DNA from: an uncultured virus (IMG/VR IMGVR_UViG_3300009152_000029)
Lineage: Duplodnaviria > Heunggongvirae > Uroviricota > Caudoviricetes
Direction: 5' to 3' (one strand)
Virus record (IMG/VR): IMGVR_UViG_3300009152_000029
Length of the DNA: 64,000 nucleotides
How positions within the stretch are numbered: the first letter of the stretch is position 1; each line of letters begins with the position of its first letter. The notes beneath the pieces were generated by a model. The model saw only the letters and a program-made list of their open reading frames with translations. It made no database searches and had not been told where the DNA came from. Positions 35,350 to 55,082 of this stretch are shown one piece after another. Position numbers and translations under genes: made by a program.

Positions 35350-36159
35350 ATGAAAACGTTTATGAAATGGGCTGGAAATAAATCTTCCATCATTGAGAAA
35401 ATTGCTCCTTGCCTTGTTGGCGAAACATTAATTGAACCTTTTGCTGGAAGTTGCGCTGTTTCACTAAATACAAATTTTAAAAAATATATTTGTAATGACA
35501 TTAATGCTGATATGATTAATATGTATCAGCTAATTCAAAAAAATCCCACAGAGTTTATAAAATTAGCGCAAGACTTTTTCCTAAATGGTAATGAAGAAAC
35601 AAGATTTTATGAATTACGTGAACTATATAATAACACCCCTGATAAAAATCTCAAATCTGCACTGTTTTTATATCTAAATAGACACTGCTTCAATGGATTA
35701 TGTAGATACAATAGTAAAGGTAAGTTTAACGTGCCTTTTGGCAAATTTAAAGCACCTTATTTTCCAGAGAAAGAAATTATTGAATTCCATGATTATACTA
35801 AAAATAATTTTGTATTCCTTAATGAAGATTTTTCTGAACTTTTCAAACAAGCAGATGAAAATACAGTAATTTATTGCGACCCACCATACTTACCACTTAC
35901 TGATACTGCTGATTTTAGTAAATACTCTACAAACGATTTTTCTATCAAAGAACACTTGCAATTAAGAGATTTAGCAATACAATATTCTAAAGAACGTTCT
36001 TGCACTGTTGTAATATCAAATCACGATACAAAAGATATTCGAGATATATATAAAGACGCAGATGATATAATTTCTTTTGACGTTAAGAGAACTATAGCAA
36101 GTAAAGCAGAAAATAGGAAGAACGCTCCTGAATTGCTTGCAATATATAAAGGTAAATAA
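35350..36159 (+). CDS. dam: Dam-family DNA adenine methyltransferase
   Basis: FMKWAGNK, EPFAGS, LYLNRHCFNGLCRYNSKGKFNVPFG, YCDPPY. Confidence 0.93.
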   Translation: MKTFMKWAGNKSSIIEKIAPCLVGETLIEPFAGSCAVSLNTNFKKYICNDINADMINMYQLIQKNPTEFIKLAQDFFLNGNEETRFYELRELYNNTPDKNLKSALFLYLNRHCFNGLCRYNSKGKFNVPFGKFKAPYFPEKEIIEFHDYTKNNFVFLNEDFSELFKQADENTVIYCDPPYLPLTDTADFSKYSTNDFSIKEHLQLRDLAIQYSKERSCTVVISNHDTKDIRDIYKDADDIISFDVKRTIASKAENRKNAPELLAIYKGK

Positions 36160-36160
36160 T

Positions 36161-36637
36161 ATGCCAGATACAAAAAGCGGAAAACAATTAGAAAGATTTG
36201 TTTATGATTTCTTTATCAGCAACAAGTTTCGAGAAATTTCTTACGCAGATTATATCAAAAACAATGATACAGAACGCACTATCATTAAACACATTCCATA
36301 CATCTCAATCTATGGAAGCAAATGCCGTACAGAATTTTTAATCTGCTTTGATGACAGAAAAATAAGAATTGAATGTAAATGGCAAAGTGTATCTGGAAGT
36401 GTAGATGAAAAATTCCCATACTTACTACAAAATGCTGCAGAAGTATGGGCAGAAGACGAAATCATAATCATACTAGATGGCGGAGGATATAAACCTAAAG
36501 CTTTCGAGTGGATTAGGACAGCTGCAAATAATAAAAAGTATCTTGACCCCAATAGCAAAAAGATTATCAAAGTATTTACTATTGAAGACTTTGTAAACTG
36601 GGTGGGATACGGAATGAAACATTTATCTGAAATGTAA
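36161..36637 (+). CDS. PD-(D/E)xK nuclease, putative restriction endonuclease partner of Dam
   Basis: SGKQLE, RTEF...RIECKWQSVSGSVDEKFPY, IILDGGG; directly follows dam. Confidence 0.7.
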   Translation: MPDTKSGKQLERFVYDFFISNKFREISYADYIKNNDTERTIIKHIPYISIYGSKCRTEFLICFDDRKIRIECKWQSVSGSVDEKFPYLLQNAAEVWAEDEIIIILDGGGYKPKAFEWIRTAANNKKYLDPNSKKIIKVFTIEDFVNWVGYGMKHLSEM

Positions 36638-36672
36638 ATTCAAATATTATTACCTAAACGTATAATCTTTTT

Positions 36673-37290
36673 ATGAATGAAAATTTAGGAATAGTTTATA
36701 TTTTAAGCAATATTGGTATGCCAGATATTTATAAGATTGGATTTACTGAAAAGAATGATGTTAAGGAAAGAGTCAAAGAACTATCCTCATCAACATCAGT
36801 TCCATATCCATTTGGAATTTATTACGCTTGCAAAGTCCAAAATGCACAAAAAGTTGAAGATACTATTCACAAATTATTTAATTCGAGTAGAGTCAATCCT
36901 AGACGTGAATTTTTTAACGTGGATCCAGAACAAGTTAAAACAGCACTTTCTTTGGCAAATCCTGTAGATGTTACTCCAGAAGAAAATACATACATTGAAC
37001 CAGATGAACTTAAAGAAATAGAAAAAGTTGCAAGGAAAAGAGAAGCTAATTTTACTTTTTCGAAAGCTTATATCCCACTAGGCTCTGTACTTTACTTTTG
37101 TAAAAATGAAGAAATTACTTGCACTGTATTTTCAGAAAATACAGTTTTATTTAATTCTCAAGTACTTACCCTAACAGAAGCTGCAAGAAAAACAGGACTT
37201 ATTTCTCAAAAAGAAATTCAAGGCCCTAAATACTGGTGCTATGAAGATGAGACACTGACTAATCGAAGAAAAAGACTACAAGACAACTAA
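36673..37290 (+). CDS. GIY-YIG / T5orf172 domain protein
   Basis: GIVYILSN...YKIGFT...RVKELS.STSVP.PF...RVNPRREFF. Confidence 0.85.
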   Translation: MNENLGIVYILSNIGMPDIYKIGFTEKNDVKERVKELSSSTSVPYPFGIYYACKVQNAQKVEDTIHKLFNSSRVNPRREFFNVDPEQVKTALSLANPVDVTPEENTYIEPDELKEIEKVARKREANFTFSKAYIPLGSVLYFCKNEEITCTVFSENTVLFNSQVLTLTEAARKTGLISQKEIQGPKYWCYEDETLTNRRKRLQDN

Positions 37291-38352
37291 TTATCTTGAA
37301 TATCCCATTCCTCCAGATCCAGGACTGTAAACATAATTCTTTTGATTTTGTTTTTGAGCTTGATCACGGGCTCTCTTGTAGCTGGAAATTTGATACTGTC
37401 CATTTGCTGGCGGAAGAATACCTTGAGCAATGTGAGCACTCATCAAAGCCATTCTTCCAGGCTCATTGCCAAGTTTTGTAATCATTTCTGGAACTGTGGC
37501 TTTTTTATTTACATAATCTAACAAAACATTATAAACTTCACCATACTTTAGCGCTAATTCATCTAATGGCATCGTGGCACCTTTAGCTTTCATTCCTTGG
37601 CTAGTATATGCTTGTGCTTGTGGAATTTGTTCTATTCTATTACTACCTTTATTTTCCATATTTCCATAAAATGTTCCAAGGGATTCTGCTCCACTAACCA
37701 TTAAACCCATTCCCGAACTTAATGTATTTAAAGCCATCAATTGTGGTTGTAATGGCAATATAGGAGGAAAATATTTTGTCAAGTTTGGATTTGTAAAAGT
37801 ACTAACGATCCTAGCTAAATATTTTGTTACTCCGCCTGGGTCATTTTTATACATTGCATTAAATCCCGACTTATAAATATTTGTTAAAAATTCAACTGAA
37901 TCTTTGATAAGATTTACAATGTCTAAAGTTTGAAAAACTTTTTGTGCAAGTGGATACTTACTAAACACATCAAGCTTTTGTTCAGCAGCATCTAATGTTT
38001 TTATCATTGAGGGAATATTTTTAGTAAACCAACCTGTTAAGTTTCCAATTGAAGCAATTGTTTTTGCATTACTTACAGGAGATTTAACTTGTTCTGATAA
38101 TTCTTGAACTTTACTAGCTCCCTGATAAACTGGATTAGCTTGAGCTTCATCTATAACTTTTTTTTCAATAGCTAAACCTTCGGGAGATAAAGCTATTCCC
38201 ATCATAGGATTTAAGGCTTTTAAATATTTTGGAATTCCTTTGGAATTATTTGGAAGGACTGTACTTAATTGCGCTATTTTAAATAGTTTGTCTGAAAGCT
38301 CGTAATCACCACAATTGTCAAAATGTTCAGCTAAATAAATAAAGTTTTCCAT
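37291..38352 (-). CDS. protein with N-terminal helical tag
   Basis: MENFIYLAEHFDNCGDYELSDKLFKIAQ; GGG-N18-AGAAT at 38362-38387. Confidence 0.7.
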   Translation of the reverse strand: MENFIYLAEHFDNCGDYELSDKLFKIAQLSTVLPNNSKGIPKYLKALNPMMGIALSPEGLAIEKKVIDEAQANPVYQGASKVQELSEQVKSPVSNAKTIASIGNLTGWFTKNIPSMIKTLDAAEQKLDVFSKYPLAQKVFQTLDIVNLIKDSVEFLTNIYKSGFNAMYKNDPGGVTKYLARIVSTFTNPNLTKYFPPILPLQPQLMALNTLSSGMGLMVSGAESLGTFYGNMENKGSNRIEQIPQAQAYTSQGMKAKGATMPLDELALKYGEVYNVLLDYVNKKATVPEMITKLGNEPGRMALMSAHIAQGILPPANGQYQISSYKRARDQAQKQNQKNYVYSPGSGGMGYSR

Positions 38353-38434
38353 ACTATATTTATTCTACTTAAAAAGAAAAATCTCCCACTTTTTCGAGGG
38401 ATAGCAGTACATCATAACGTATAAAACTTATGAA

Positions 38435-40195
38435 ATGTATTATAGAATCAAGATAAGAATGCCAAAAAGCAAAATCGTTCAATACGATATGCCAGCTCCT
38501 ATTTCAGTCAATGATCTATCCCCAGAAGAATTTAACAATTTATTAAAAGATACAAAAGATCACATAACTTTACTATCAAAAACTAAATTTGCAAGTAAAC
38601 AAATTTTTATTGAAAGATTATCTCAAGAAAAAGCAACTCAACTTACACAATTTTATTCTTCTTCACCACATTATTTTGCTGATATAAACACAGAACCTGG
38701 ACAAAATAATACTTTAATACTAAGAATTGGAAAACCCTTATTAAAAGATCTTCCAAATTTAGATATAATACAAAATGCATATGCACAACTCGGAGTGCAA
38801 CCTATACCTTTTATTAGAAAAAACAATAAAAATATACGTTATCCTGATTATGAAATAAATAATAAATACAGAATTGACTTTATAACTCCTGATGCTCAAA
38901 CATTCTTAAATATTTTAAGAGATATGAAAAATAAAAATATAATATCAAATAGATTTTCTGAAACAGTATATGAAGGTTTGCCAAAACAATATTATTTTAA
39001 TGATGTGTGGTATCAATTAAAATCTAAAAGCAATCTTAATGCTCTAGACAAACAACAATTAAATATCTTTAGGAATGAAATGAATCCAAAAGTTTTATCA
39101 TTCAGAGAAAATCCTATTGCTTGGGAAAGTTTCCTAAGAACACTACCAAAAGACATTACTGAAAGAACATATAAAATATCTGTAGAACAAAAATATGATA
39201 AAATTATAGATATCAATAATAAAGAAATATCAATATATAATTTCAACAATGAAAATTATCATATATTATCACTCAGACAATTAAGAGATCCATTTAATAG
39301 TGATTTAAAAACTGTTTACGAAGAATTGATCATTGATAAAAGAGAGCCAACATCAAGTCTTGGTGATAAAGTTTTTTTTAACATTCAACAAACCAATCTT
39401 ACTCAAAATATACTTCCACAAAATTTATTTTTTAAGCAAGGATTTCTATGTAAACTCGATCCCAGATTCGAAGAGTTTGTTGAAACACAAATCAAAAAAG
39501 ATAGAAACAAAGACATTTTTACTTATCTCTTTAGTAGCATAAAATCACATAAAACAGTAATCGAAAGAAATGGAAAAACTATCCATTGCTTCAATTTATC
39601 TAACACTGAATTTGAAAAAATCCCAGAAGTAAAAGATGGCTGGTCGTATAGAAAAAATCTTACACCTGAAGATCCAGATTTCGAAGATAAAAAATTATAT
39701 GAGTTTGAGCTAGAGTGTGCAGAAACTGCAAATGATGAAATGAGATCCTGCACTAAATGGAAATGTACAACTTACACACCTAATAAAGATGGTTTTGCAG
39801 ATTCTTATTCTATCTTTTTGAATAATAATAATTTTGATCCACTATCATATTCTTTTGATGCTGTTGTTTTAGACAGTAGTAAAAGAATTCAATATATTTT
39901 AGAATTTGATGGAAGTGATCATTATTACGCAAGACCAAACACAGAGATGGATATTACAAATAAAATTGTTTCTGATCAAATTAAAAACAACTTTGCAAAT
40001 TATTTCTCAATACCAATTAAAAGAATTCCCTTTTTTGCAAGACGTAAGGCAGCTGATTTTGAAGAACAATTTCAGGATTTTGTTTTAAGATTACTCTCAG
40101 AACAATACGTGCCAAATTACACATCCACTCCTGAAACTGTAAACCCAGGCATATATACAAAAGCAGCATATAAAATAAAACAAATAATTAAATAA
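38435..40195 (+). CDS. large protein with C-terminal Vsr/DUF559-like endonuclease domain
   Basis: FDAVV...ILEFDGSDHY...DQIKNNFA...IKRIPF. Confidence 0.6.
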   Translation: MYYRIKIRMPKSKIVQYDMPAPISVNDLSPEEFNNLLKDTKDHITLLSKTKFASKQIFIERLSQEKATQLTQFYSSSPHYFADINTEPGQNNTLILRIGKPLLKDLPNLDIIQNAYAQLGVQPIPFIRKNNKNIRYPDYEINNKYRIDFITPDAQTFLNILRDMKNKNIISNRFSETVYEGLPKQYYFNDVWYQLKSKSNLNALDKQQLNIFRNEMNPKVLSFRENPIAWESFLRTLPKDITERTYKISVEQKYDKIIDINNKEISIYNFNNENYHILSLRQLRDPFNSDLKTVYEELIIDKREPTSSLGDKVFFNIQQTNLTQNILPQNLFFKQGFLCKLDPRFEEFVETQIKKDRNKDIFTYLFSSIKSHKTVIERNGKTIHCFNLSNTEFEKIPEVKDGWSYRKNLTPEDPDFEDKKLYEFELECAETANDEMRSCTKWKCTTYTPNKDGFADSYSIFLNNNNFDPLSYSFDAVVLDSSKRIQYILEFDGSDHYYARPNTEMDITNKIVSDQIKNNFANYFSIPIKRIPFFARRKAADFEEQFQDFVLRLLSEQYVPNYTSTPETVNPGIYTKAAYKIKQIIK

Positions 40196-40232
40196 AAAAT
40201 CCCCCGATTAAAGATTCGAGGGATTTTTTTCT

Positions 40233-40817
40233 TTAAAACAAAACTTCCAACATATCTCCAATTTCTGTCTCACTAAACATTCGAGGATTAGATTTTATCT
40301 GCATATATAATTTCTTTAATTGAGGGATATTCTTTATACTCTGATTATTATATGTTGCACCACTATCAGCATAAGCATCAAAAGCAGCTGTCAAATTATT
40401 CATCCCATTCTTTCTACCAAACTCAAATAAACTAGTAACAAAACTTCTCGGATTACTACTGTTACTTACACTATCCCCACTCTCATAACGACTAATCTCA
40501 TTCCTGAAATTAGTAGGGATTAATTTTTTTCTAATATCTAATATTTCTTTCGGAGTATATGGATTGTCACGATACATACTGCCATCCATAACGGCTGTAC
40601 CTGATAAATTCTTAGGCATATTCTTCATTCGAGAAATCATCATCTCATCATAAGATTTACTTCCCGGAGCCCTGTAATCATTATAATGCCTCTTGTCAAC
40701 ACCCTCATAAAATTCAACAGGAGGAATATACAATTCAGCAATCTTATATAACTTATCAGATAAAACATAACTACCAAGATTATCTAATAAACTTGCAACC
40801 TTTAATAATTTATCCAT
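40233..40817 (-). CDS. protein with N-terminal helical tag
   Basis: MDKLLKVASLLDNLGSYVLSDKLYKIAE; AAG-N18-AGAAT at 40827-40852. Confidence 0.7.
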   Translation of the reverse strand: MDKLLKVASLLDNLGSYVLSDKLYKIAELYIPPVEFYEGVDKRHYNDYRAPGSKSYDEMMISRMKNMPKNLSGTAVMDGSMYRDNPYTPKEILDIRKKLIPTNFRNEISRYESGDSVSNSSNPRSFVTSLFEFGRKNGMNNLTAAFDAYADSGATYNNQSIKNIPQLKKLYMQIKSNPRMFSETEIGDMLEVLF

Positions 40818-40852
40818 ACAATATATATTCTACTTAAATTATCCATCTACTT

Positions 40853-42025
40853 TTCGAGCATTTCTTTTTTGCCCATTAGTAGAAAAGCTTATATAATATT
40901 CTGAGCAATTTAAAAAACCCATTAGAGAGAACAAAAGAAATGTTAGACTACATAGAACAAACATCTTTAAAATTCCATATAGAAAGATTTATCATAGACA
41001 ATATAGATGAACAATATAAATTTCAAAAACACTATTAGAGAAACAAACATTTTCGAGCAAATAATGAAAAACATAAAACCATACATAACATTAATCTTTC
41101 TCATCATTATATTATTTTTCGCCATTAAAGAAAAACAAACAACAATCAAAATAATTAATAATCTACTATACCAAGATGAAATATTACAAACTAAAACAAT
41201 ACACCACTAAACAACAATATATTTCGAGCTTTTATAAACACCATTAGAGTAAAACAATTTTCGAGCATATCAAACACTATTAAAATTATATAAAGACTTT
41301 GTCTCTTCTACATATAAGAAACATATTCCTTTAATGAATCAGCTACCTTGCATTAATACAGACTTATCCTCAAATATAAGTTTTTGATACCTTTTGAGCA
41401 TAAAAATTTACAGAAAAAAGAAAATATAAAAACAGTGGAGACCTTATAACATTATTCACATATTATAATTACAAAATTATAATACTAGTGGAGGTTGAGT
41501 GGAGACAGGGTGGAGACTATATGGAGAATAATATTTTTATTACATTATTAGAGAAGGAATATATTAACACATTATAGAACAATACATATCCTAAAACACC
41601 ATTATTAAAAAAGAAATAGATCCTTCAAATTCGAGGGATCTATTTTTTGTTATATAAGAAAGAAAATATATTTCGAGCTTTTTAATAAGGGAGAAAAATA
41701 ATTATTACCATAGAGAAAAAAAAGAAATATTAGATTAAAGAATGGTCTAATATAGATAAAGATTGTTCACACTAGAAGAAAGATTGGTCTCAGTTATCGG
41801 GGCTCTTAAGAAAAAGCGAGAACAATCTAAATTGAACTATAAATTTTGGGACGTAATAAGTATTATTCTATGTAAGATAAATCTTTACCTTCATCTCCCA
41901 AACAATTAGAGAGGCCAAATTTTCGAGCCTATTTCTTTTAGAATATTCTTATGTTAGTGCATAAGAATATCTTTCTTATTTAGCTTCAACATTTTATCAT
42001 TAGAGGGGAGACAGATTTCGAGCCT
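40853..42025. other. non-coding A-rich locus, candidate replication origin and/or packaging (pac) region
   Basis: ~1.2 kb without a credible ORF; repeated TTTCGAG, CATTAGAG and GTGGAG; + strand shifts from C-rich to G-rich across it (judged by eye). Confidence 0.5.
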
Positions 42026-42601
42026 ATGAATATTCGAGGTTATTGTTTAAGTAAAGTAAATGGCCCAGGATTAAGATTTGTATTATGGACTCAAGGTTGT
42101 TCTAAAGGATGTAAGAATTGTTTTAATCCTGAGACTTGGAGCTATGAAGTTTATAAAGAACTTTCTCCTAGACAAATTTTCGAGCTAATAAAAAATTTCG
42201 AGGTAGATGGAATAACAATATCTGGCGGAGATCCTTTAGAGCAAGAGAGAGAATTGTTAGAGCTTTTATTTCTCTTAAAAGAAATAAAACTCCCTAAAGG
42301 AATTATATTGTTTACTGGATTTTCTCGTAATGAAATCCGAGAAAATCCTCTTAGAGAAAAATGTTTAGAGTATATAGATGTTTTAATTGATGGACGGTAT
42401 GAGGAAGAGTATAAGACAGAAGATTCTCTTAGAGGTAGCCTTAATCAAGAGTTTTATTTCTTCTCTAATAAGATTTCCAAGGAAGAGTTATTTTTCGATC
42501 AAGAGATAGAACTTTCTTTAGAGAGTGATAAAATAGTTATGACTGGTTTTCCTAACATTTCGAGGAAAGTTTTAAAAGATTTAGGTGTAATTTTGAAATA
42601 A
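42026..42601 (+). CDS. radical SAM protein, NrdG-like activase
   Basis: VNGPGLRFVLWTQGCSKGCKNCFNPETW, GITISGGDP, IDVLIDGRY, LRGSLNQ. Confidence 0.85.
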   Translation: MNIRGYCLSKVNGPGLRFVLWTQGCSKGCKNCFNPETWSYEVYKELSPRQIFELIKNFEVDGITISGGDPLEQERELLELLFLLKEIKLPKGIILFTGFSRNEIRENPLREKCLEYIDVLIDGRYEEEYKTEDSLRGSLNQEFYFFSNKISKEELFFDQEIELSLESDKIVMTGFPNISRKVLKDLGVILK

Positions 42602-42645
42602 GAATAAAAGAGTTATTAGGATAGGATTTCGAGTAAAAGATATTA

Positions 42646-42873
42646 ATGAAAATATATCTTGAGGTGTGGGAGATGACAAAGAAAAATAAAATGTTATATG
42701 ATGCTTTGATAGACTATGTTTCTTATTTTTACAATTGCTCAGATATGCCAGATAGTGCTAAATATAATGCGCTAAAGATTTTCGAGGTATTACAAGATGA
42801 GAAAATCGATGTTAATGATTTTATCCCTGTAATGAGACAAATACAATTCAGTTTAGATTTACTAGCAGCGTAA
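42646..42873 (+). CDS. hypothetical protein
   Basis: Short ORF ending at a bidirectional terminator (42876-42903). Confidence 0.5.
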   Translation: MKIYLEVWEMTKKNKMLYDALIDYVSYFYNCSDMPDSAKYNALKIFEVLQDEKIDVNDFIPVMRQIQFSLDLLAA

Positions 42874-42901
42874 AGAAAAAGAGGAGCTTTGCTCCTCTTT
42901 T

Positions 42902-43573
42902 TTATCTTTTCTTAAACACTCCAGAAAGAATGTTAGAGTATTCTTCTTTACTCTTTCTCACTACATCTTCAAAATTAGAGGTGTTGACTTCTGAGTATCC
43001 TTGTGCATCAAAGAACCTAATTAAAGATTCTTGATTAAAATGCCAAAGATGTTCATTTGGTTTTCGATGTTTCCAATTCTCAAACCATTCATCAGAAAAA
43101 TTATAGCAATGTGGTAGAGAGCAAACAATATAATTACAATTTAAATTTTCGAGGAAGTATGGATTGGGAAAATGTTCTAATACATCAAAAAAAGTTATTA
43201 CATCAAAATGTTTTTCAGATATATCTTTTACAAATTCAACACCTTCTGGAATTGGATAATGAGAAATATCGTGTCCATAACATTTCGAGTAATTTTTTGC
43301 TAAATTTAAAAAAGCACCATTACCATATCCAACATCTAAAATTGATTCTGGCATTTTTCCCAAAGAACCAATGATGTAGCCTAAACGCAAGTGAGACATA
43401 ATATCATTTGTAGGAAGTGTATTATAATTGTCTGCGTAAGAATAATCGTATAAGAATGGTTCTCTATCTTTTTGAAATATTACACCATTAGAATCTTTTT
43501 CATAATTGTCTAGCATAAAAGGATTATACAGGATAGAGTTGATAAGATCTAATTGAAGAGACGAATAAGACAA
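42902..43573 (-). CDS. class I SAM-dependent methyltransferase
   Basis: ILDVGYGNGAFL, FDVITFFDVLEH, EHLWHF. Confidence 0.8.
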   Translation of the reverse strand: MSYSSLQLDLINSILYNPFMLDNYEKDSNGVIFQKDREPFLYDYSYADNYNTLPTNDIMSHLRLGYIIGSLGKMPESILDVGYGNGAFLNLAKNYSKCYGHDISHYPIPEGVEFVKDISEKHFDVITFFDVLEHFPNPYFLENLNCNYIVCSLPHCYNFSDEWFENWKHRKPNEHLWHFNQESLIRFFDAQGYSEVNTSNFEDVVRKSKEEYSNILSGVFKKR

Positions 43574-43657
43574 TGAAGTACTGAATCTACTCTTCCCTAA
43601 ACACTTTAATTGTGGAATTAAATAAAAAAGGATTCTTTCTAGAAGAATCCTTTTTTA

Positions 43658-44071
43658 TTATTGCTGTAAAAAGTTATCTAATTCATCAGCACTACTAGAT
43701 TGATTATTTTCTATTAGTAATGTAGATATTTTATTTCCCGCTTCTTCTAAACTATCTACTAGTGATCTTCTGTAATCATAGAATGCAGAATCATCAGGAC
43801 CTTCTTCACCTTCTAAGAATTGAGGTAGAGATTTAGCTGTATTTAAAATTTGAATAATTTGAGATTTTAAATTTTCTAATACAATTTCAACATTACTATA
43901 ATCTTGTTGAATACTAGATCTATCTTCTCCTGGCATTATAATATCTCTAGGATCAATTTGAGCTTCTCTTTTTAAAAGCATTTCGAGAGCAATACTATTA
44001 TAACCGAGCTTCTTTAAAATCTCTTCGTTCATAGGAAATAACTTCTTAATATTAGTGTTTTCTTCCTGCAT
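43658..44071 (-). CDS. hypothetical acidic protein
   Basis: 137-aa ORF between a promoter and a terminator. Confidence 0.55.
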   Translation of the reverse strand: MQEENTNIKKLFPMNEEILKKLGYNSIALEMLLKREAQIDPRDIIMPGEDRSSIQQDYSNVEIVLENLKSQIIQILNTAKSLPQFLEGEEGPDDSAFYDYRRSLVDSLEEAGNKISTLLIENNQSSSADELDNFLQQ

Positions 44072-44087
44072 ATGATATCATCTTTAT

Positions 44088-45005
44088 ATGAATCTTTCCT
44101 TATGCTGCATTTCGAACATTTTGGCAGAACAGGGCCATAAATTTCGAACAATGACTTATAAATCTTTTTCGAGTAAAGAAAGATCCGAATCATTAGAGAA
44201 GCTGTCAGAGATAATAATTAATAATTTTACTGTGTCTGAGAAAATCGTTCGTCATTGTGCTGCTAATAATATTCAGGGATATAGACTTTCGAGCGATTTA
44301 ACTCCAGTAATAAAACATCCTGAAGTAATGTTGGCCCTGGAAGATCTGCCAAATTATAATCTTATTAATAAATCAATAGAAGATTTATCCCATACGATTA
44401 AAGAAACAGGTATTAGAGTAAGCGCACATCCTAGTGAATATATAACTCTTACCTCTGATGACGACGTTAAAATAAAACATTCCTTAATTGATTTAGAAAT
44501 GCACGGGGAAATATTTGATAGATTAGATTTAAGTAGGTCCCATTACAATCCTTTAAATATACATATACGTAAAGAAGGAGATGCAGAAGATTTATCAGGA
44601 ACGTTTATTAAAAATTTCGAGCGCTTATCTGAAAGTGTAAAGAGTAGACTAGTATTAGAGAACAACGATACTGGCAATACTTGGACTGTATCTAATCTTA
44701 AAAAATATTTTTATAATAGGTGTGAAATTCCCGTTACATTTGATAATTTGCATCACGAAATGTTGAATCACGGAACTTCTCATAAGGATGCGTTTTTCGA
44801 TGCATTTTCTACCTGGAATTGTGCTCCTATATTCCATTACTCTGAAGGCAAGAATGGAACTAGAGCTCACAGTGATATGGCCGAGAATCTTCCAGTACAT
44901 TATGATAAAGATGTATTGTTTGATGTAGAATTAAAGAATAAAGACTACGCAATATTAGATATATTAAAGAGATACAATGAAAGAGAAATTCTTACAACTG
45001 TCTGA
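44088..45005 (+). CDS. uvsE: UV damage endonuclease
   Basis: YRLSSDL.P, RVSAHP, LNIH, RLVLENND, VTFDNLHH, FHYSE, RAHSD, VELKNKD. Confidence 0.9.
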   Translation: MNLSLCCISNILAEQGHKFRTMTYKSFSSKERSESLEKLSEIIINNFTVSEKIVRHCAANNIQGYRLSSDLTPVIKHPEVMLALEDLPNYNLINKSIEDLSHTIKETGIRVSAHPSEYITLTSDDDVKIKHSLIDLEMHGEIFDRLDLSRSHYNPLNIHIRKEGDAEDLSGTFIKNFERLSESVKSRLVLENNDTGNTWTVSNLKKYFYNRCEIPVTFDNLHHEMLNHGTSHKDAFFDAFSTWNCAPIFHYSEGKNGTRAHSDMAENLPVHYDKDVLFDVELKNKDYAILDILKRYNEREILTTV

Positions 45006-45189
45006 TTCCTTAAATGAAATTGAATCAGATAATATTATCACACTGCTAACAAATTTGCTTGAGTCCTGGGAAGATGATAAGATCAATTTACACACTTCAA
45101 TTCAGGATTTTGAGCTCAGCACTATTTATAAGGTATTAAATTTATTTACAGATGAAAGAGAAGATTCAAGCGCTAGCGCAAATTCTTAA
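44977..45189 (+). CDS. hypothetical protein
   Basis: Overlapping ORF chain. Confidence 0.5.
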   Translation: MKEKFLQLSDSLNEIESDNIITLLTNLLESWEDDKINLHTSIQDFELSTIYKVLNLFTDEREDSSASANS

Positions 45190-45373
45190 TGACGATGAAG
45201 CTGCGTTATTATTTCAATTATTATTAAAGAGTTTTGAGACAGCTAATTATCAAAAAGTAGAATATCAAAATAAAGATTTAATTGGAGAACAGTCTTTAAT
45301 GGTAAACGTTGAGTTAGATTTAAAAAACGTGCCTGCAAGAGTAATAGAAAGATTACTAGGACTTTTAAAATGA
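45152..45373 (+). CDS. hypothetical protein
   Basis: Overlapping ORF chain. Confidence 0.5.
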   Translation: MKEKIQALAQILNDDEAALLFQLLLKSFETANYQKVEYQNKDLIGEQSLMVNVELDLKNVPARVIERLLGLLK

Positions 45374-45672
45374 GTACCTTATATCCAGAACTAATAGAAG
45401 AAGATGATGAAGCCACCTTTTCGAGCAATCTTTTTAAATTATATAAGCTTGATGAACGTTGCGGCAAATTAGAGGCACCAAACTTTCGAGTAATATATTT
45501 AAAAGATAAGAAAACCCAAATACATATATCTAATCATTTTAATAGCCCTACATGCATTATATCATATTATAATATAAAAGATAAATCTTGTATCGATGCA
45601 AGAACAATCTCAAAACGATTATATAATAAAATTCATGACCATTATTTCGAGATTAAGAAAAAAATCTTTTGA
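45370..45672 (+). CDS. hypothetical protein
   Basis: Overlapping ORF chain. Confidence 0.5.
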   Translation: MSTLYPELIEEDDEATFSSNLFKLYKLDERCGKLEAPNFRVIYLKDKKTQIHISNHFNSPTCIISYYNIKDKSCIDARTISKRLYNKIHDHYFEIKKKIF

Positions 45673-45727
45673 CACACCCTTAAACATCTGATACTATAAG
45701 ACATCAAACGAAAGGGTCGAAGCCAAA

Positions 45728-46402
45728 ATGACCTTCCAGAGTGTTTTAGAGAGTGTTGATAGCCATAAGGTGAATGGATATAAAGAGTATTGGAATAACA
45801 TTGCTCCACAGACAGATGGAGAATTTTTCCAAAGATGGTTGTTCGCATATACATCAATTCATACTACGTGGGAAAGTAATGTTCGTGCATACAATCATAT
45901 CAAGAATTTCGAGTCTTGGATTAGTGATAAAGACCAACTTGCTCATTTATTATATATAGGTAGAGCAGGTTGTCATAATCAGCGCACAAAGTATATTTGG
46001 GACTTTTCGAGTAAGTTTTGGGCGAATCCAGAAAAGTTTAAAAAGACTAATAGAGAGAACTGGTTTAAGTTTCGCAATCGTCTCTCTCTTGAATTGTGGG
46101 GAATTGGATTAGCAAAAACAAGTTTTGCTCTTGAATTATGTTATCCAGAAAAATGTCAAGCGGTATGTCTTGATGTTCATATGCTCCGTTTACTTGGAAT
46201 GAATGAACAGGGATATAAGAAAGATAACTCTAAAGATGTTGCCGAGTATGAACAAGGCGAAAGAAAATGGCATTATCGAGCAGAGAAAATGAAAGCACCC
46301 AATTATATAGCCAGATGTATTTATTGGGATGTCAAACAAGGTTATAAAAATTCGAGGTATTGGTCTTCTTGTTTAGAGAATCAATTGCACTTTGATTTTT
46401 AA
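45728..46402 (+). CDS. HhH-GPD DNA glycosylase-like protein (second paralog)
   Basis: GIGLAKTSFALEL...VCLDVHMLR; sigma70-like promoter TTGACA..TACTAT upstream. Confidence 0.7.
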   Translation: MTFQSVLESVDSHKVNGYKEYWNNIAPQTDGEFFQRWLFAYTSIHTTWESNVRAYNHIKNFESWISDKDQLAHLLYIGRAGCHNQRTKYIWDFSSKFWANPEKFKKTNRENWFKFRNRLSLELWGIGLAKTSFALELCYPEKCQAVCLDVHMLRLLGMNEQGYKKDNSKDVAEYEQGERKWHYRAEKMKAPNYIARCIYWDVKQGYKNSRYWSSCLENQLHFDF

Positions 46403-46543
46403 AAAGATTGCTACAGGATGATTTTGGCTTCTTGTCCTGTAGCGATTAGAGGGAGAACAATGTCGTTCTCCCTCCCAATAAAGAAGCTTTTATTGTTTGC
46501 GTTATTATGTCTCTTATGATATATTACATTAGAGAGAGCCAAT

Positions 46544-46798
46544 ATGAAAAAGATGCGTGTTACAGTTGTCGCAGAATTCACTGTTCCTGATGGTGTTATT
46601 TTGCACGATACAGTTTTCGAGGCAGAGGGTGTATTCTTTCATCCAGAAATTTCTTTTGATTGCATAGAAATTGACCCATCCTTTCCAGAAGACTTATTAA
46701 GATTTCCTAATGATATTTCTAGCATTGAGGAATTCGAGATAAAAAATATTAGTATGGAATCAAATGTAGAGTATATTGATTTTGAGGAAGCCAAATGA
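46544..46798 (+). CDS. small acidic protein (paralog family A)
   Basis: MRVTVVAEFTVPDGV similar to 46795 and 48334. Confidence 0.55.
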   Translation: MKKMRVTVVAEFTVPDGVILHDTVFEAEGVFFHPEISFDCIEIDPSFPEDLLRFPNDISSIEEFEIKNISMESNVEYIDFEEAK

Positions 46799-47034
46799 AA
46801 ATCAATTTTAAAATTACAGGTACAATGGAAATACCTGATGACGTAATAAAGCACTATGATGTTGCTGGTAAATTATATGCATTAGAATTCAATGACATAA
46901 TGTATATGCTGCAAATGTGTATTGTTGCTGAAGCTGGTGCTGGTGGATATGATATTGTTCATCAATTCGAGGAAATGGAAAATCATAGCATAACTAATGT
47001 GCGCTATGATGATGCAGAATTTTTTGAAGACTAG
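46795..47034 (+). CDS. small acidic protein (paralog family A)
   Basis: MKINFKITGTMEIPDDV...YDDAEFFED. Confidence 0.6.
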   Translation: MKINFKITGTMEIPDDVIKHYDVAGKLYALEFNDIMYMLQMCIVAEAGAGGYDIVHQFEEMENHSITNVRYDDAEFFED

Positions 47035-47239
47035 TGCAGCAAAACAACTTGCTGCAGAAATTAAATACTTAGAGTGGGACCAAGTAACATTTAATTTCTA
47101 TCATAAGAGCTTTAAGGGATATAATTTCTACAAGAGAAATATATCCCTTAATTACTGGCAATACACTGTTGTAGATGATATAACATCCTGTACATTTATG
47201 ATGTACGAGAAAGAAGCCAAAAGATGCCTAACTGGGTAA
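46997..47239 (+). CDS. hypothetical protein
   Basis: Fills the gap in the operon; start uncertain. Confidence 0.45.
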   Translation: MCAMMMQNFLKTSAAKQLAAEIKYLEWDQVTFNFYHKSFKGYNFYKRNISLNYWQYTVVDDITSCTFMMYEKEAKRCLTG

Positions 47240-47856
47240 TGAACGAACTCACCTGTATTTTCCAAACACAGGAAGAGTATAATGTTTTTAAAGAGAAAGT
47301 CAATCTTGAAGGATTGTTCAACTCCTTCATCCCTATGCCTGAAGTTTTAAAGGGAACATCATCTCCTCATCTTGCTCCAGGTGATTATATCAATGAAGTG
47401 AATAAGCACAAGAATACTAATTTTCTTACATTAGAGGAAGTTGCTACTTGTGATGATGAGTGGGTTGTTCATCGTGCTAAAGAGATTATTCAAAACATCA
47501 AAGCGTTCGAGGAAACAGGTTATCATGACTGGTATTCTTGGAACCTTAATAATTGGGGTGTTAAGTGGGATGCTGTAAGACCAACTGCTAAGTATGACCT
47601 TCTTACAATTACCTTTAGTTTTGACTCTCCTTGGGGTTGTCCTGAACACTTTGTCAGAGAGTTGTCTAAACTGTACCCTAACGCTACATTTGAGATGGTT
47701 TCTGGCTCCATTGAAAACGATACCCATTACGAGTTTACCTGTGAAGATGGTAAATTCGAGGAAACCTGCTCCTATGAAACATTTAAGGAAGCAGTAGCAG
47801 ATGGTAAATGGGGCGGATGGGATGAATGGTCTGATATGTTTGAGGAAAGCATATAA
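47224..47856 (+). CDS. DUF1281/YubB ferredoxin-like domain protein
   Basis: MPNWVMN...IPMPEVL...WYSWNLNNWGVKWD...FDSPWGCP. Confidence 0.75.
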   Translation: MPNWVMNELTCIFQTQEEYNVFKEKVNLEGLFNSFIPMPEVLKGTSSPHLAPGDYINEVNKHKNTNFLTLEEVATCDDEWVVHRAKEIIQNIKAFEETGYHDWYSWNLNNWGVKWDAVRPTAKYDLLTITFSFDSPWGCPEHFVRELSKLYPNATFEMVSGSIENDTHYEFTCEDGKFEETCSYETFKEAVADGKWGGWDEWSDMFEESI

Positions 47857-48077
47857 TGACACTCAGAGAACTAATTTTAAAACTTCAAGAATTAGAAAAG
47901 AAATATGAACAGTATAGCCAAGACACTGAAGTTGTAATTGCTGTACATTCTAAAAATGAATTCAACCCAGAAGTATCTTTAGATTATATTGATGAAGTAG
48001 TACATCCCGCTCTAGATACATTCTCTGGTTATATTTGCCGGATTGTCTTATGTGGAGAAATCGAGGGAGAAGACTAA
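47856..48077 (+). CDS. hypothetical protein
   Basis: MTLRELILKLQ phage-type start; TAATG overlap. Confidence 0.6.
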   Translation: MTLRELILKLQELEKKYEQYSQDTEVVIAVHSKNEFNPEVSLDYIDEVVHPALDTFSGYICRIVLCGEIEGED

Positions 48078-48142
48078 ACTATTTCGAGGGGAGATTTTCG
48101 AGTCTCCCCTTTCTTATATGTTAGAGATGATATAATACAGCT

Positions 48143-48334
48143 ATGGAAAACATTAAGTGGATTCGAGCAATGAGTGACCGTTTGAGAGATGAACTTTCGA
48201 GCGAGTATGATGATGAAACAAAAGATTTAATTATTCGAGCTTTTATGCGAGGGTTATATCAAGACCCATCTATAGTAGAAGAACTAAAATCGAGCTCTCT
48301 TATTGAATCTGATTATTTTGAGGATGCAGAGTAA
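48143..48334 (+). CDS. hypothetical protein
   Basis: TGnTATAAT promoter just upstream. Confidence 0.55.
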   Translation: MENIKWIRAMSDRLRDELSSEYDDETKDLIIRAFMRGLYQDPSIVEELKSSSLIESDYFEDAE

Positions 48335-48561
48335 TGAAAGAATTTAAATTTTCAATCACAGGCACTATCTTTGTTCCTGACAATGTAGAGTATGAGTACG
48401 ATTTCGAGAATCAAATCTACTCTTTTAAAATCAATGATAAGACATATTCCTTAATCGCTGGTTTAGAAGCAGATGATAAAGAAATAATTGTAACAGATGA
48501 AAATTTTAAATCTCATGAGCTTGGAATTTTCGAGTATGAGGATGCCTACTTTGAAGATTGA
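48334..48561 (+). CDS. small acidic protein (paralog family A)
   Basis: MKEFKFSITGTIFVPDNV...YEDAYFED. Confidence 0.6.
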   Translation: MKEFKFSITGTIFVPDNVEYEYDFENQIYSFKINDKTYSLIAGLEADDKEIIVTDENFKSHELGIFEYEDAYFED

Positions 48562-48772
48562 AAAATTTATCTATATGGCTGATGGATTCTATGTTTACAA
48601 AATGGAAGAGGGATATGCTGTCAAAGACCAATTTGGATATACTTTAAAAACAGCTAAGACAGTTAAGACTTGCGAAAACTATGTCCAGCTCCAATTACAA
48701 ACAAGACGTGCAGCAGAAAGATACGCAATTGAAAAGATTAATCAAGACAAGAATCAAAGTAGAGCCGTATAA
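48497..48772 (+). CDS. hypothetical protein (start uncertain)
   Basis: ORF chain; weakly similar to the next ORF. Confidence 0.5.
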   Translation: MKILNLMSLEFSSMRMPTLKIEKFIYMADGFYVYKMEEGYAVKDQFGYTLKTAKTVKTCENYVQLQLQTRRAAERYAIEKINQDKNQSRAV

Positions 48773-48950
48773 GATATATCAAATAGATGATTCTTATGTG
48801 GCTGAATTAGATAGTGTTGAAGTTTATAGAACAAAACATCAACATCTCTGCACAAGCTTCTGTCAAATAAAATTAGCAGAAGAAAGAAACCGACGCAACC
48901 AGATGATTCTAGAAAATATTAATACACTAAAGGCACAGGGAATTTTATGA
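48681..48950 (+). CDS. hypothetical protein (start uncertain)
   Basis: ORF chain. Confidence 0.5.
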   Translation: MSSSNYKQDVQQKDTQLKRLIKTRIKVEPYKIYQIDDSYVAELDSVEVYRTKHQHLCTSFCQIKLAEERNRRNQMILENINTLKAQGIL

Positions 48951-49201
48951 TAGCTCTAATTAGTATTTTTCTCTTAACCGCACTGGACCCAATAAAGAAT
49001 TTTGTATCTTTAAAAACTTACATATCAGAGAATGCAAAAGCTCACTGTTATGTTTATTTTATTAATGAAGATATCCCAGACTTTCCAAGAGTTAATATAA
49101 TTGAGAAAAATAAATTTGATTTCTTCGCATATCTTGATACAATAGGCATAGAACATTCTAAAGTAGGAAGTTACTATTTCTTTAACAGGAAGCCAAAATG
49201 A
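48947..49201 (+). CDS. hypothetical protein
   Basis: ATGA-coupled. Confidence 0.5.
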   Translation: MIALISIFLLTALDPIKNFVSLKTYISENAKAHCYVYFINEDIPDFPRVNIIEKNKFDFFAYLDTIGIEHSKVGSYYFFNRKPK

Positions 49202-49509
49202 CAAATAAAGAAAGAAAGATATTGGATAAAGAACTCCAATATCTTTGCGATTACCAAGACCGAGTTAAGGCAATCAGAGAATACACTGGAATTCATCCAC
49301 ATAAAACATTTCTCAATGAAGTAGAGACAATTGAAAGTCTTTATAAGTCAGTACTAGAGAACCGCAAACAATGCAAGTCAACTTACTTCTCTGTTGGAAC
49401 TGCTGGTTGGTTTGTTGTTTACCTAAGAGACAAGAAGAAATATAAAGAGGGTGAAGAATTTAGTATTAAAATCTATCACACTTTTGTCTGGTCTGATAAT
49501 CTTGATTGA
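49198..49509 (+). CDS. hypothetical protein
   Basis: GGAAGCCAAA leader; terminator follows. Confidence 0.6.
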   Translation: MTNKERKILDKELQYLCDYQDRVKAIREYTGIHPHKTFLNEVETIESLYKSVLENRKQCKSTYFSVGTAGWFVVYLRDKKKYKEGEEFSIKIYHTFVWSDNLD

Positions 49510-49625
49510 ACCTAATATCCCAAAGAATTTTCTTTGGGATATTTTTTAGTAATATCTTTGATATTACTCATTTAAAAAACAAAAAATATATTTTGCACCT
49601 TTATGACAATATGATATAATACGTT

Positions 49626-50186
49626 ATGTCCGAAGAGAATACCCCAACCTTAATACTTGATAATGACGTGCCTAAGGGAGAAAAGAAATTTACTTACTTC
49701 ATTACAGAACGTCACGGTTATGTTCAAACTACATTGCCCTATCTGCGTAAACTAAAGATTTCAAAACTCATCAGCAAGTTTTCCCGTAGAGACCGCAATA
49801 AAGTATTCATTGAAGAAGACGGTGATTTGAGACTATTCTTAAAGCGACATAGAGTAGACGGCATCAATGTTATATTAGAAGAAGATTTCTCATTACCACA
49901 ATATCGTTTTGATAATATGATAAATCACGACGATTACTCTTGGACTGGCGAACAATTTGATGGATTCAAAAGCGATTGGACATTATCCTTCCAATGCATC
50001 TTCTCAAAAACAGACAGCATCAAACACGTTAGAGATGGTATCTTTGAGACTAAAGATGGCAAACAAATCAAGATATATCCTACAGTGTATGTTGACGGAA
50101 AACCACTCAAGGCACATCAGGCAAAGAAACTAGGCTTTGAGCCCATCGCTATTGATACGAAAGACTTGGAAGAATACAATGACTGA
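49626..50186 (+). CDS. hypothetical protein
   Basis: TTGCAC..TGnTATAAT promoter immediately upstream. Confidence 0.6.
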   Translation: MSEENTPTLILDNDVPKGEKKFTYFITERHGYVQTTLPYLRKLKISKLISKFSRRDRNKVFIEEDGDLRLFLKRHRVDGINVILEEDFSLPQYRFDNMINHDDYSWTGEQFDGFKSDWTLSFQCIFSKTDSIKHVRDGIFETKDGKQIKIYPTVYVDGKPLKAHQAKKLGFEPIAIDTKDLEEYND

Positions 50187-50478
50187 AACACAAACTATCC
50201 GGGAATATATTGAAACACTTGATGGAGCAATTACATACGATGGTTGTGATTCAGCTCTCGTCGGTACTGCTAAAGTAATTAGAGAAGAACAATGGGTGGA
50301 AATTGCAATCTACTCATATGAAAGACTTGTTGAACATTTTAAAAACGAATATCTCTCTGACTCTGAAAATCCAATCTCTGAAGACGAAGCAGAAGAGGAC
50401 GCTTTCGAATGGGTAGATTTTAATATTGCAGGTGGATATCTTGGAATTAGAACTCCTATGATAATCTCCACCGAATAA
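50137..50478 (+). CDS. hypothetical phage protein (likely start MTETQ)
   Basis: DGCDSALVG...AIYSYE...EWVDFNIAGGYLG..TP motif common in phages. Confidence 0.65.
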   Translation: MSPSLLIRKTWKNTMTETQTIREYIETLDGAITYDGCDSALVGTAKVIREEQWVEIAIYSYERLVEHFKNEYLSDSENPISEDEAEEDAFEWVDFNIAGGYLGIRTPMIISTE

Positions 50479-50492
50479 TGTAAAAAAAATAT

Positions 50493-51149
50493 ATGGACAT
50501 TTTCTTTCACGTATATTTAAAATCTGGATATTCTCGTATCCTTATTGATAAATTTAAAAAGTTCAAATCTTCTGGCCTCTATGATAGTGCTAATAAGATT
50601 TATCTTACATTATATGGAGACATTGAATTTAACTCTGAATTCTTAAATGAATTAAAAGATATGTATTCAAAAATAGAATACGGAATTGTCTCTAATGCTG
50701 TTTTTAATAATGAACCTGATACTCTCAACTTAATGTTAAAAAAAGCAAATGAATATGAATCTAATACTCCTATGCTCTATCTGCACACTAAAGGTTTATC
50801 TTACACAAACCCTGATGTAAAAAAGAATGTAGAGGCCTGGGTTAGATATTTAGATTTATATGTAATTAATAAATGGAAAGAATGCGTAGAGTCTTTAAAA
50901 GATAATGATTCAGCTGGCGGATTTTACGTGGAAGAACCAAAACACTTCCAAGGAAATTTCTGGTGGGCTAATTCAGATTACATAAAGAATCTTCCAAAAC
51001 TTACACCAGATAATATTGAAAATTATAATAGGGGAGAATTTTGGATTCTTTCACAGACAGATAAAGTATATCCGCTATCAGGTGTTACTCCCGTCAATAT
51101 GTATCAAAACTATTATTGCAAAGTAGAAGACTTTCCAGATGGATGGTAA
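50493..51149 (+). CDS. putative glycosyltransferase-like protein
   Basis: LYLHTKG and HFQGNFWWANSDYIKNL motifs. Confidence 0.55.
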   Translation: MDIFFHVYLKSGYSRILIDKFKKFKSSGLYDSANKIYLTLYGDIEFNSEFLNELKDMYSKIEYGIVSNAVFNNEPDTLNLMLKKANEYESNTPMLYLHTKGLSYTNPDVKKNVEAWVRYLDLYVINKWKECVESLKDNDSAGGFYVEEPKHFQGNFWWANSDYIKNLPKLTPDNIENYNRGEFWILSQTDKVYPLSGVTPVNMYQNYYCKVEDFPDGW

Positions 51150-51163
51150 ATTTAAAATATAAG

Positions 51164-51203
51164 AACTTTCTTAAGCCGGGGATTTCCCCGGCTTAAGAAA
51201 GTT
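51164..51203. repeat. perfect 19-bp inverted repeat
   Basis: AACTTTCTTAAGCCGGGGA-tt-TCCCCGGCTTAAGAAAGTT. Confidence 0.9.
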
Positions 51204-51346
51204 GTCAAGTTTTTTATTTTCTTGACAAAAACAAGCTTTTGTGATAGTCCTGGCATTCAAAAATATATTTAAAATACTTGTGGCAACTAGTATACACAGA
51301 TGGTAATATTCAGTATCACATTGTTTGATAAGGAAGCCAACCCGTT

Positions 51347-52663: not shown

Positions 52664-52767
52664 CCCACAAATCTTCCAATAAGGACGTTATAATTGCACT
52701 AAATGCTCTTATAGCGTCCTTATTTGTGCTTAAATGCAGCTAAAAAAATAATTTGACATTCTATGAC

Positions 52768-52789
52768 AGGTCTGGTAGACACCAGACCT
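52768..52789. repeat. 22-bp palindrome family member
   Basis: AGGTCTGGT-agac-ACCAGACCT. Confidence 0.8.
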
Positions 52790-52876
52790 AAAAAAATTTG
52801 TCAATTTTTTTTATTTCAAATATAGTACTTGCACACCATATACACAGATGGTAATATTCTAGTGAGGAAACCTATT

Positions 52877-54985: not shown

Positions 54986-55060
54986 TAGGTTTCCTCAAAA
55001 CAAATAGTCCAATAGGAAAAGGAGGCTTTCGAGCCTCCTTTTTTTTTGATAGAATTTCGA

Positions 55061-55082
55061 AGGGATGGTAATTACCATCCCT
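55061..55082. repeat. 22-bp palindrome family member
   Basis: AGGGATGGT-aatt-ACCATCCCT. Confidence 0.8.

Follow-up and report, generated by a model that had tools for sequence, protein, structure and literature searches.

The window analysed here is a stretch of 64,000 nucleotides from an uncultured virus of the Caudoviricetes (IMG/VR record IMGVR_UViG_3300009152_000029), in which the hexamer TTCGAG recurs on one strand of a zone of early genes. In reverse complement it corresponds to positions 169585-233584 in a 358,269-bp virus contig of 33.7% G+C, which is classed as linear in IMG/VR and has a CheckV completeness of 89%; the window and the genome record differ at 1 base in 64,000. The genome encodes GroEL, ClpP, Hsp20, several sigma factors, a NusG/KOW protein, a DNA polymerase, a clamp loader and rIIA/rIIB, as well as four tRNA genes, and the phage is large and of virulent type. 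The zone features genes of nuclease and methyltransferase type, which include PD-(D/E)XK, T5orf172, D12 adenine methyltransferase and UvdE. Its features are collected in Table 1. Gene calls are simple open reading frame (ORF) calls, and the 24 sequencing runs referred to below were used as assembled contigs.

Table 1. Features of the TTCGAG zone, in window positions
Feature	Position	Strand	Remarks
Dense part of the array	36038..48534	+	46 TTCGAG on +, 0 on -; mean spacing ~280 bp
Sparse tail of the array	55028..58565	+	7 copies, 0 on -; around rIIB and beyond
1.2-kb A/C-rich non-coding stretch	40818..42025	+	highest density of the word, 8 TTCGAG
Five (G)TGGAGAC-type direct repeats	41436..41527	+	sole such cluster in the 358-kb genome
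S-adenosylmethionine (SAM)-methyltransferase gene	42902..43573	-	Methyltransf_23, E 2e-16
Conserved opposite-strand gene	43658..44071	-	41% amino-acid identity to L004 1561-1965, E 9e-16
Word-free island inside the zone	37291..40195		minus-strand gene and 586-aa plus-strand gene, 0 copies in genes
Word-free plus-strand genes, including DUF932 and rIIA	48600..55000	+	about 6.4 kb, 0 copies, inside the span of the zone
UUCG-tetraloop terminator	48086..48111	+	GAGGGGAGATT-TTCG-AGTCTCCCCTT, embeds the word
Early promoter example	48131..48145	+	TGATATAAT-N6-ATG, leaderless start

TTCGAG was counted 54 times on the plus strand and 4 times on the minus strand of the whole window, with 37 and 2 copies for TTTCGAG and 43 and 8 for TTAGAG. 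Plus-strand TTCGAG is absent before 36 kb (0:4 in 1-36000, plus to minus), reaches 46:0 in 36001-49000, where an unbiased scan of all hexamers ranks it as the most strand-asymmetric, and stands at 8:0 in 49001-64000. The copy at 60503 belongs to the T-loop of a tRNA-Met gene. These counts bear out a preliminary description of the window, which had proposed an enrichment on one strand that is rare in the first 36 kb and is not shared by the complement; all the positions that it gave are occupied within 1-2 bases (18 of 18 for TTCGAG and 4 of 4 for TTAGAG). Dinucleotide-preserving shuffles of 36001-49000 (n = 300) yielded 2.16 ± 1.41 copies with a maximum of 6, against the 46 observed, which is an enrichment of more than 20-fold. 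Synonymous-codon shuffles of 13 plus-strand ORFs (n = 500; 7158 nt) yielded 4.24 ± 1.84 copies with a maximum of 10, against 24 observed, and the enrichment proposed earlier therefore survives both the dinucleotide and the codon-aware null. In the zone the dipeptide Phe-Glu is spelled TTCGAG in 14 of 24 cases, compared with 0 of 20 in 22 plus-strand ORFs of the first 33 kb; outside the zone it is spelled in this way in 4 of 322 cases, for which codon usage predicts 12.7. Zone proteins are also enriched about threefold in Phe-Glu itself, with 24 in 2386 codons against 322 in ~100,500 codons elsewhere.

The 358-kb genome carries 65 copies on the window's plus strand, 55 of which fall in six adjacent 5-kb bins (~25 kb), and 29 scattered copies on the opposite strand. 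In the 289 ORFs outside the zone the word is mildly depleted, both in sense (18 vs 26.4 ± 4.8) and in antisense (16 vs 28.5 ± 4.6), and a sense-specific avoidance was rejected because the depletion is mild and affects both strands. TTCGAG is thus enriched in the zone alone, while the rest of the genome shows a tendency to avoid it. Avoidance of Type III restriction sites, as in T7, removes one orientation of a site and brings no enrichment; a Type III-like orientation bias was rejected given the enrichment over shuffles and the presence of both orientations outside the zone.

The information in the word is limited to the hexamer itself, a W at position -1 (T 82, A 33) and a base other than A at position +6, as determined from 119 sites in the window and two relatives. 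No conserved flank or partner element lies within 30 bases on either side of these sites, and no conserved local structure was found around them. TTAGAG is the only one of the 18 one-mismatch variants that shares the strand bias (25:3, 20:1 and 11:4 in three genomes). In five places in the window it is followed by TTCGAG 16-17 bases later, and four of the five TTAGAG-N10/11-TTTCGAG pairs fall in the non-coding stretch. Called ORFs contain 35 of the 54 plus-strand copies; 5 lie within minus-strand ORFs, and 19 lie outside the listed ORFs, some of them in small ORFs such as 48143-48334. The 31 sites in plus-strand ORFs are spread over the three frames (19, 4 and 8), with frame 0, which reads Phe-Glu, the commonest. 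This preference is what might be expected if the array had arisen secondarily from composition or codon usage, or from a peptide repeat or duplicated modules. However, both nulls fail widely, the flanks are not conserved, the word is found in non-coding DNA and in antisense, and its use for Phe-Glu is rare outside the zone, so that the chance of such an origin is negligible. A peptide or codon artefact is ruled out by the spread over frames, the two nulls and the spelling of Phe-Glu elsewhere, and repeat modules are ruled out as a source by the unconserved flanks.

The orientation of the genes provides a key discriminator between possible readers of the word. In the dense zones of seven loci pooled, plus-strand ORFs carry 95 top-strand sites in 23.9 kb and minus-strand ORFs carry 12 top-strand sites in 4.2 kb, with 0 bottom-strand sites in either class. 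Real minus-strand genes that carry the top-strand word include the Methyltransf_23 gene, the 41%-conserved ORF of Table 1 and the ClpP gene of locus L010 (E 4.9e-72). The Methyltransf_23 gene has 2 TTCGAG and 2 TTAGAG on the plus strand, antisense to the gene. The conserved ORF has one plus-strand TTCGAG at 43982, which is retained in L001 and L005. In L010, clpP belongs to a three-gene operon at the edge of the zone and is encoded on the minus strand, while its window orthologue, identical at 145 of 195 residues, lies outside the zone. At both of the top-strand sites in the L010 gene the two proteins are the same (Ser-Arg-Ile and Leu-Glu) and it is the synonymous base that differs, CGA vs CGT and CTC vs CTT. 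These synonymous changes, together with the pooled counts, argue for selection on one DNA strand whatever the sense of the message. The preliminary description had the word inside genes of both orientations with its polarity kept, which agrees with the pooled loci and with ClpP. The polarity belongs to the zone and not to individual genes, and a reader of the word must therefore move along the DNA, or be oriented on it, in a single direction. Taken together, W-TTCGAG-B, with TTAGAG as a weaker form, is very probably a positively selected cis-signal on one strand of a 20-30 kb hyperplastic early-gene zone in a clade of freshwater jumbo phages.

Independence of message sense also strongly disfavours a target in mRNA, and the candidates left are readers with a fixed direction of movement or binding on the DNA. 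A signal at the RNA level would make UUCGAG in early mRNAs the target of a sequence-specific endoribonuclease or an RNA-binding protein that times the decay or protection of early messages. Most zone genes do carry the word in the sense direction, where it occupies each of the three frames and at times the loop of a hairpin, and pieces of the relatives' versions of the zone (85-95% alike) are present in the RNA library of one metatranscriptome run, X20. The equal antisense density in real opposite-strand genes, whose mRNAs carry CUCGAA, weighs heavily on the other side, as does the lack of conserved local structure. Additionally, no RegB-type (REGB_T4) or PemK/MazF-type gene was found in the 89%-complete genome, the RegB search having been run without a positive control. 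An RNA-level role is accordingly quite improbable. A set of RegB-type RNase targets was rejected on the same antisense density, the lack of a fixed distance to gene starts and the lack of a REGB_T4 or PemK match. A known RNA family was rejected as well, since the Rfam search finds only the four tRNAs.

The array is shared by related phages. Three IMG/VR loci with a UvdE protein 76-81% identical to that of the window have TTCGAG counts of 35:0, 31:0 and 31:0. More distant relatives were gathered by an rIIA-alignment search, and at 32-54% rIIA identity the array is found upstream of rIIA with counts of 31:0, 32:3, 28:1, 38:1, 20:4 and 30:0; an array of this kind is lacking in phages of ~50% G+C, whose rIIA is more distant again. 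Constancy of the word over this range is what one would expect of a reader that evolves slowly and is probably encoded by the host. No close isolated relative was found by rIIA (best match 24-33% identity) or by GroEL (best ~50% identity, mostly cellular-like), and the phage and its strain variants are present in many freshwater and lake metagenome runs. In a triplet scan of viral contigs (at least 120 loci), nine strongly one-strand-biased loci among the matches listed were examined (L034, L072, L061, L037, L096, L119, L132, L055 and L095). None of the nine is a dispersed array of the type seen in this clade; seven are regularly spaced tandem repeats and two are a local cluster of 3-4 copies. 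A full-text search of a limited literature collection for TTCGAG or for strand-specific hexamers in early genes returned nothing relevant.

Comparison of individual sites shows what has been conserved. Between the window and L001 (80.5% DNA identity) 19 of 23 TTCGAG sites are kept, compared with 37.5% of background hexamers; between the window and L002 (74% identity) 0 of 9 are kept. UvdE carries 3-4 sites both in the window and in L001, and 0 in L003, where the gene has been relocated out of the dense run. Sites that are not conserved are replaced by TTTGAG/TTTGAA or by TATAAT, TATGAT, TATGAC or TATCAG. The latter four correspond to changes from Phe-Glu to Tyr-Asn, Tyr-Asp or Tyr-Gln, which implies that the word is bought at the cost of conservative amino-acid changes. 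The word thus tracks the zone and is not tied to any given gene.

Larger records show the array as a block of 20-30 kb that is restricted to one strand and contains dense sub-clusters. It covers 122.3-152.8 kb in contig G001, with 42 of 45 forward copies, and 101.4-123.5 kb in G005, with 49 copies. No locally inverted block was found, and the bottom-strand hits in L005, L007, L009 and L010 are isolated, in plus-strand genes outside the dense zone. The densest run starts at a long, repeat-rich and A-rich non-coding stretch (window 40818-42025, L003 ~2150-3150, L007 ~3700-4240). In L003 the array begins abruptly at this stretch and runs one way, with 21 sites in the 2.3 kb of the next five genes. 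The preliminary description had centred a cloud of words on the 41-kb gap; the array is not symmetric about the gap and this part of the description does not hold, although the orientation, as it stated, is unchanged across 40.8-42.0 kb. In G005 (reverse complement of L030 ~4527-4720) copies of the word directly flank tRNA genes, and one abuts an apparent tRNA-like 5' end.

The preliminary description further proposed a directional binding array laid over coding sequence, such as a terminase (pac) recognition zone, a partition centromere or a loading signal. A directional signal on a DNA strand is retained from this proposal. Pac zones and centromeres are typically compact, with longer repeats packed into a few hundred bases of non-coding DNA. 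Directionality, repetition and a density that peaks next to a repeat-rich non-coding stretch speak for such roles; the array spans 13-30 kb, however, lies mostly inside genes, is built of a bare hexamer without flanks, and no ParB-type gene is found among the zone proteins scanned. Both roles are very unlikely, and that part of the proposal is not supported. A loading signal may still apply if the term is taken broadly, as a polar mark for a machine that tracks along DNA. The Terminase_6N profile, which was used for the packaging type, gave no match.

Within the window the copies of the sparse tail are at 55028, 55110, 55132, 57247, 58041, 58056 and 58560, and the dense part also holds 25 copies of TTAGAG, against 3 on the minus strand. 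The lack of copies across the DUF932-rIIA stretch indicates that the density is patchy between transcription units. In the word-free island the minus-strand gene is absent from strain variants, a single TTCGAG lies in the gap at 38393, and the 38-40 kb bin has a GC content of 27.4%. The zone is a mosaic between strains, with many variant joints. The Methyltransf_23 gene is missing from L001 and from one strain variant. The (G)TGGAGAC repeats lie just downstream of a sigma-70-like match (11 of 12) at 41455-41483, and two copies occur at the equivalent place in L003 (2165-2190). They could be iterons of an origin or part of a GGAG-rich leader RNA; as a conserved partner element of TTCGAG they were rejected because they are absent from more distant relatives. 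The two methyltransferases were considered as an inversion pair and are not homologous (E 0.11), and the window ORF 40233-40817 is not a homologue of the L010 ClpP. At the far edge of the zone (58446-59733) a DNA methyltransferase gene precedes one of the IceA family (Pfam ICEA, E 2.8e-30), a pair that looks like a phage-borne restriction-modification-like system.

The early promoters of the zone are of the extended -10 box type. The sequence TGATATAAT or a near variant lies exactly six bases before the ATGs at 35350, 44088, 49626 and 57771, the promoter spans being 35341-35352, 44073-44090, 48131-48145, 49612-49628 and 57757-57773. The layout is kept in relatives, for instance near 10001, 9212 and 14382 in L003. 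With this spacing transcripts would begin at the start codon, giving leaderless mRNAs. A generic sigma-70 scan gave 104 matches against 92 ± 9 in shuffles, which is not above chance. Internal operon genes are preceded by GGAAGCCAAA; a conserved GGAAGCCAA(A) motif, in place of a canonical Shine-Dalgarno sequence, is found upstream of the ATGs at 45728, 47224, 49198, 51347 and 58446, and likewise at the orthologous starts in L001. TTCGAG is not a part of the early promoters, which do not contain it, and a promoter role of its own was rejected because the 119 sites show no information at -30..-6 or +7..+35 and no fixed distance to starts. The terminator of Table 1 is conserved in L004, L005, L009 and L010, and a second of the same type lies at 55016-55043. 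Both UUCG-tetraloop terminators are nearly letter-for-letter the same across relatives whose proteins are highly divergent.

These signals bear on a reading in which the word exerts polar control of rightward transcription elongation across the early zone, as a stop, a pause or a license, with early shut-off or antitermination as examples. The reader would be either a monomeric roadblock on duplex DNA, as in stoperators, or RNA polymerase with a NusG-type factor that reads the non-template strand, as with TTNTTT or ops; copies in opposite-strand genes would act on rightward read-through. The word is co-oriented with nearly all early genes, the patchiness by transcription unit and the conservation of single sites are expected of locally acting sites, and the genome encodes a NusG/KOW protein and several sigma factors. 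Orientation-dependent precedents are available in stoperators (PMC9283540) and in the TTNTTT signal of NusG (PMC9963633). Additionally, in nine zone loci 11 of 83 terminator-like hairpins contain the word, always overlapping the loop, where ~4.7 are expected. This excess is mild, however, and 8 of the 11 cases are copies of two orthologous terminators; the other 72 hairpins are without the word, and TTCGAG was rejected as a terminator component on these grounds. The near-equal density in opposite-strand genes, reached through synonymous changes, would need pervasive antisense read-through, for example in the clpP operon of L010. A NusG-like gene was found in G001 and G003 and not in G004, which is 88% complete, or in the fragments G005 and G006. 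A length of 6-7 nt is short for a duplex-binding repressor, given that stoperators are 13-mers, most sites lie inside genes, and a phage-encoded reader is expected to drift across so deep a clade. Control of elongation is the main rival to the Chi-like reading given below, and is somewhat less probable than it.

A strand-specific nick or base modification made in virion DNA by a phage enzyme, with a role in injection, the start of replication or recombination, would also give a short and exact strand-level signal that is independent of gene orientation. Virion DNA of phage T5 has nicks in one strand, and the PD-(D/E)XK, T5orf172, D12 adenine methyltransferase and UvdE genes of the zone are of nuclease or methyltransferase type. 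No enzyme is linked to the word, however, and the reading leaves unexplained why the targets are confined to one zone and why selection on them is strong. It is unlikely.

The reading that we prefer, at a probability of roughly 35%, is that TTCGAG forms a Chi-like polar array for a helicase-nuclease that processes DNA ends. A RecBCD/AddAB-type helicase-nuclease would enter at a DNA end beside the zone and scan one strand, and a word met in the right orientation would switch the enzyme from degradation to recombination. The switch would protect the incoming or replicating genome and would make the zone prone to recombination. A short word with low recognition per site would need many copies, and a reader encoded by the host could let the same word last across very divergent phages. 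The DNA end beside the zone, the strand and direction that are read and a nuclease that recognises the word are elements that we infer. As with Chi, the word is short and asymmetric and occurs in essentially one orientation (46:0, 35:0 and 31:0) regardless of gene direction. Action at the level of the strand, indifference to gene direction, a short exact word, constancy through a deep clade and the mosaicism of the zone fit a Chi-like reading.

Several features of the contigs are weak hints of an end or a repeat boundary at the zone. The contigs of G002, G006 and G007 start or end in or at the zone, G004 (316 kb, 88% complete) lacks exactly the zone, and a repeat-rich stretch lies at the dense edge. 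In run X7 (window positions 36001-56000) the depth of same-strain contigs is ~3.1 to the left of 42.0 kb and ~5.5 to the right (~1.8x), these being summed contig depths and not local ones. The step could mark the boundary of a terminal repeat, or merely more strains that share the right part, and is only a hint of an end or repeat boundary. Away from the zone, at the ends of the phage's own contig G000, the first 50 bases are repeated 681 bases inward and the last 30 bases are repeated near the start. The break in G000 thus falls among tandem repeats in a region of very large ORFs (2000-3500 aa), which suggests a circular or permuted assembly that was broken at a repeat.

Other observations weigh against a Chi-like array. 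The zone is internal in several contigs (G000, G001, G003 and G005), and the DNA end is one that we place there by inference. Published Chi words are typically G-rich, and TTCGAG is not. The number of individually conserved sites, about 50, seems excessive for a signal that gains less from each further copy, and the patchy density, with 0 sites in the 6.4 kb that hold rIIA, suits locally acting sites better. The genome encodes a RecA/UvsX-type recombinase (E 2e-43) and a Rad50/SbcC-type AAA_23 protein (E 1.2e-11), which departs from the correlate seen in lambdoid phages, where the Chi-rich members of a survey were the ones that lack a Rec module (PMC12315714). The genome search gave no UvrD-type helicase. 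TTCGAG is not over-represented in five Clostridia-type genomes, which are the closest cellular GroEL donors and none of which is an established host; their strand bias is confounded by gene orientation. Relatives of the phage GroEL point weakly to Bacillota/Clostridia as the host. A GroEL 93% identical to that of the phage is found on L151, a 6.4-kb contig of a lake 'Rickettsiaceae' metagenome-assembled genome; this contig is most likely a fragment of a related phage that was mis-binned by its low G+C, and not a host gene.

If the word is not Chi, it may tentatively be seen as a lineage-specific 'early-zone code', an undescribed but widespread phage device in which a one-strand word marks the hyperplastic early region for a directional reader. 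Candidate readers are a DNA-tracking or elongation-coupled factor that tells early phage DNA from that of the host, or a factor that controls entry of the genome, early shut-off or recombination within the region.

The array is of interest under any of these readings, as selection is strong enough to change synonymous positions, and even the encoded residues, at intervals of about 250 bp throughout 20-30 kb. Six letters that are fixed across very divergent giant phages point to a reader acting in the first minutes of infection. Were a Chi-type role true, the Chi sequence of an uncultured freshwater host lineage would have been obtained from phage DNA alone, and end-protective Chi arrays would be extended from lambdoid to jumbo phages. 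Were it not, the word would define a new layer of cis-regulation, open to testing, in the early regions of phages. In both cases it is a simple computational marker of the early or hyperplastic zone, and possibly of the leading end, in uncultured phage genomes.

Among known systems, the RegB endoribonuclease of T4 acts on early mRNAs at GGAG sites, which lie chiefly within ribosome-binding regions and work in the RNA sense. The likeness to TTCGAG is that a short word marks early messages in a large virulent phage with rIIA/rIIB; the difference is that TTCGAG is fixed to a DNA strand and lies mostly within ORFs. The TTNTTT signal of NusG (6 nt) and the ops element of RfaH (12 nt) are strand-specific words that are read single-stranded in the transcription bubble, and the phage likewise encodes a NusG paralogue. 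Such words count only on the non-template strand (PMC9963633). TTCGAG is on the non-template strand for plus-strand genes, whereas in opposite-strand genes it is on the template strand and would be on the non-template strand only where rightward read-through crosses them.

The stoperators of cluster A mycobacteriophages, bound in duplex DNA by the L5 gp71-type repressor, a monomeric protein of two domains, are asymmetric 13-mers that block elongation in one direction (PMC9283540). They share with TTCGAG the many asymmetric, orientation-dependent copies. Unlike TTCGAG, they lie in short intergenic gaps across a temperate genome and flip with transcription, while the hexamer is mostly inside genes, within a single zone, and keeps its orientation where a gene lies on the opposite strand. 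A stoperator system proper was rejected, given that the information is held in 6-7 positions, that the sites are largely in ORFs and that their orientation does not follow gene direction.

A further likeness is to the Chi arrays of phages LLS, MD8 and P1, which are hotspots for RecBCD. One-orientation and end-clustered arrays are given for LLS (20:3) and MD8 (32:0), and the authors infer positive selection to engage RecBCD (PMC12315714). As in those phages, TTCGAG is a short asymmetric word in nearly one orientation that occupies one part of the genome, is laid over genes above codon expectation and is common to phages of related hosts. It differs in its length of 6-7 nt, in its density of ~1 per 280 bp vs ~1 per 1.9 kb, in its restriction to 20-30 kb of early genes within a genome of 358 kb and in the company of the phage's own RecA-type and Rad50-type genes. 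The distinguishing marks of the TTCGAG array are its very high density, the depth of its conservation and the indifference to message sense seen in ClpP.

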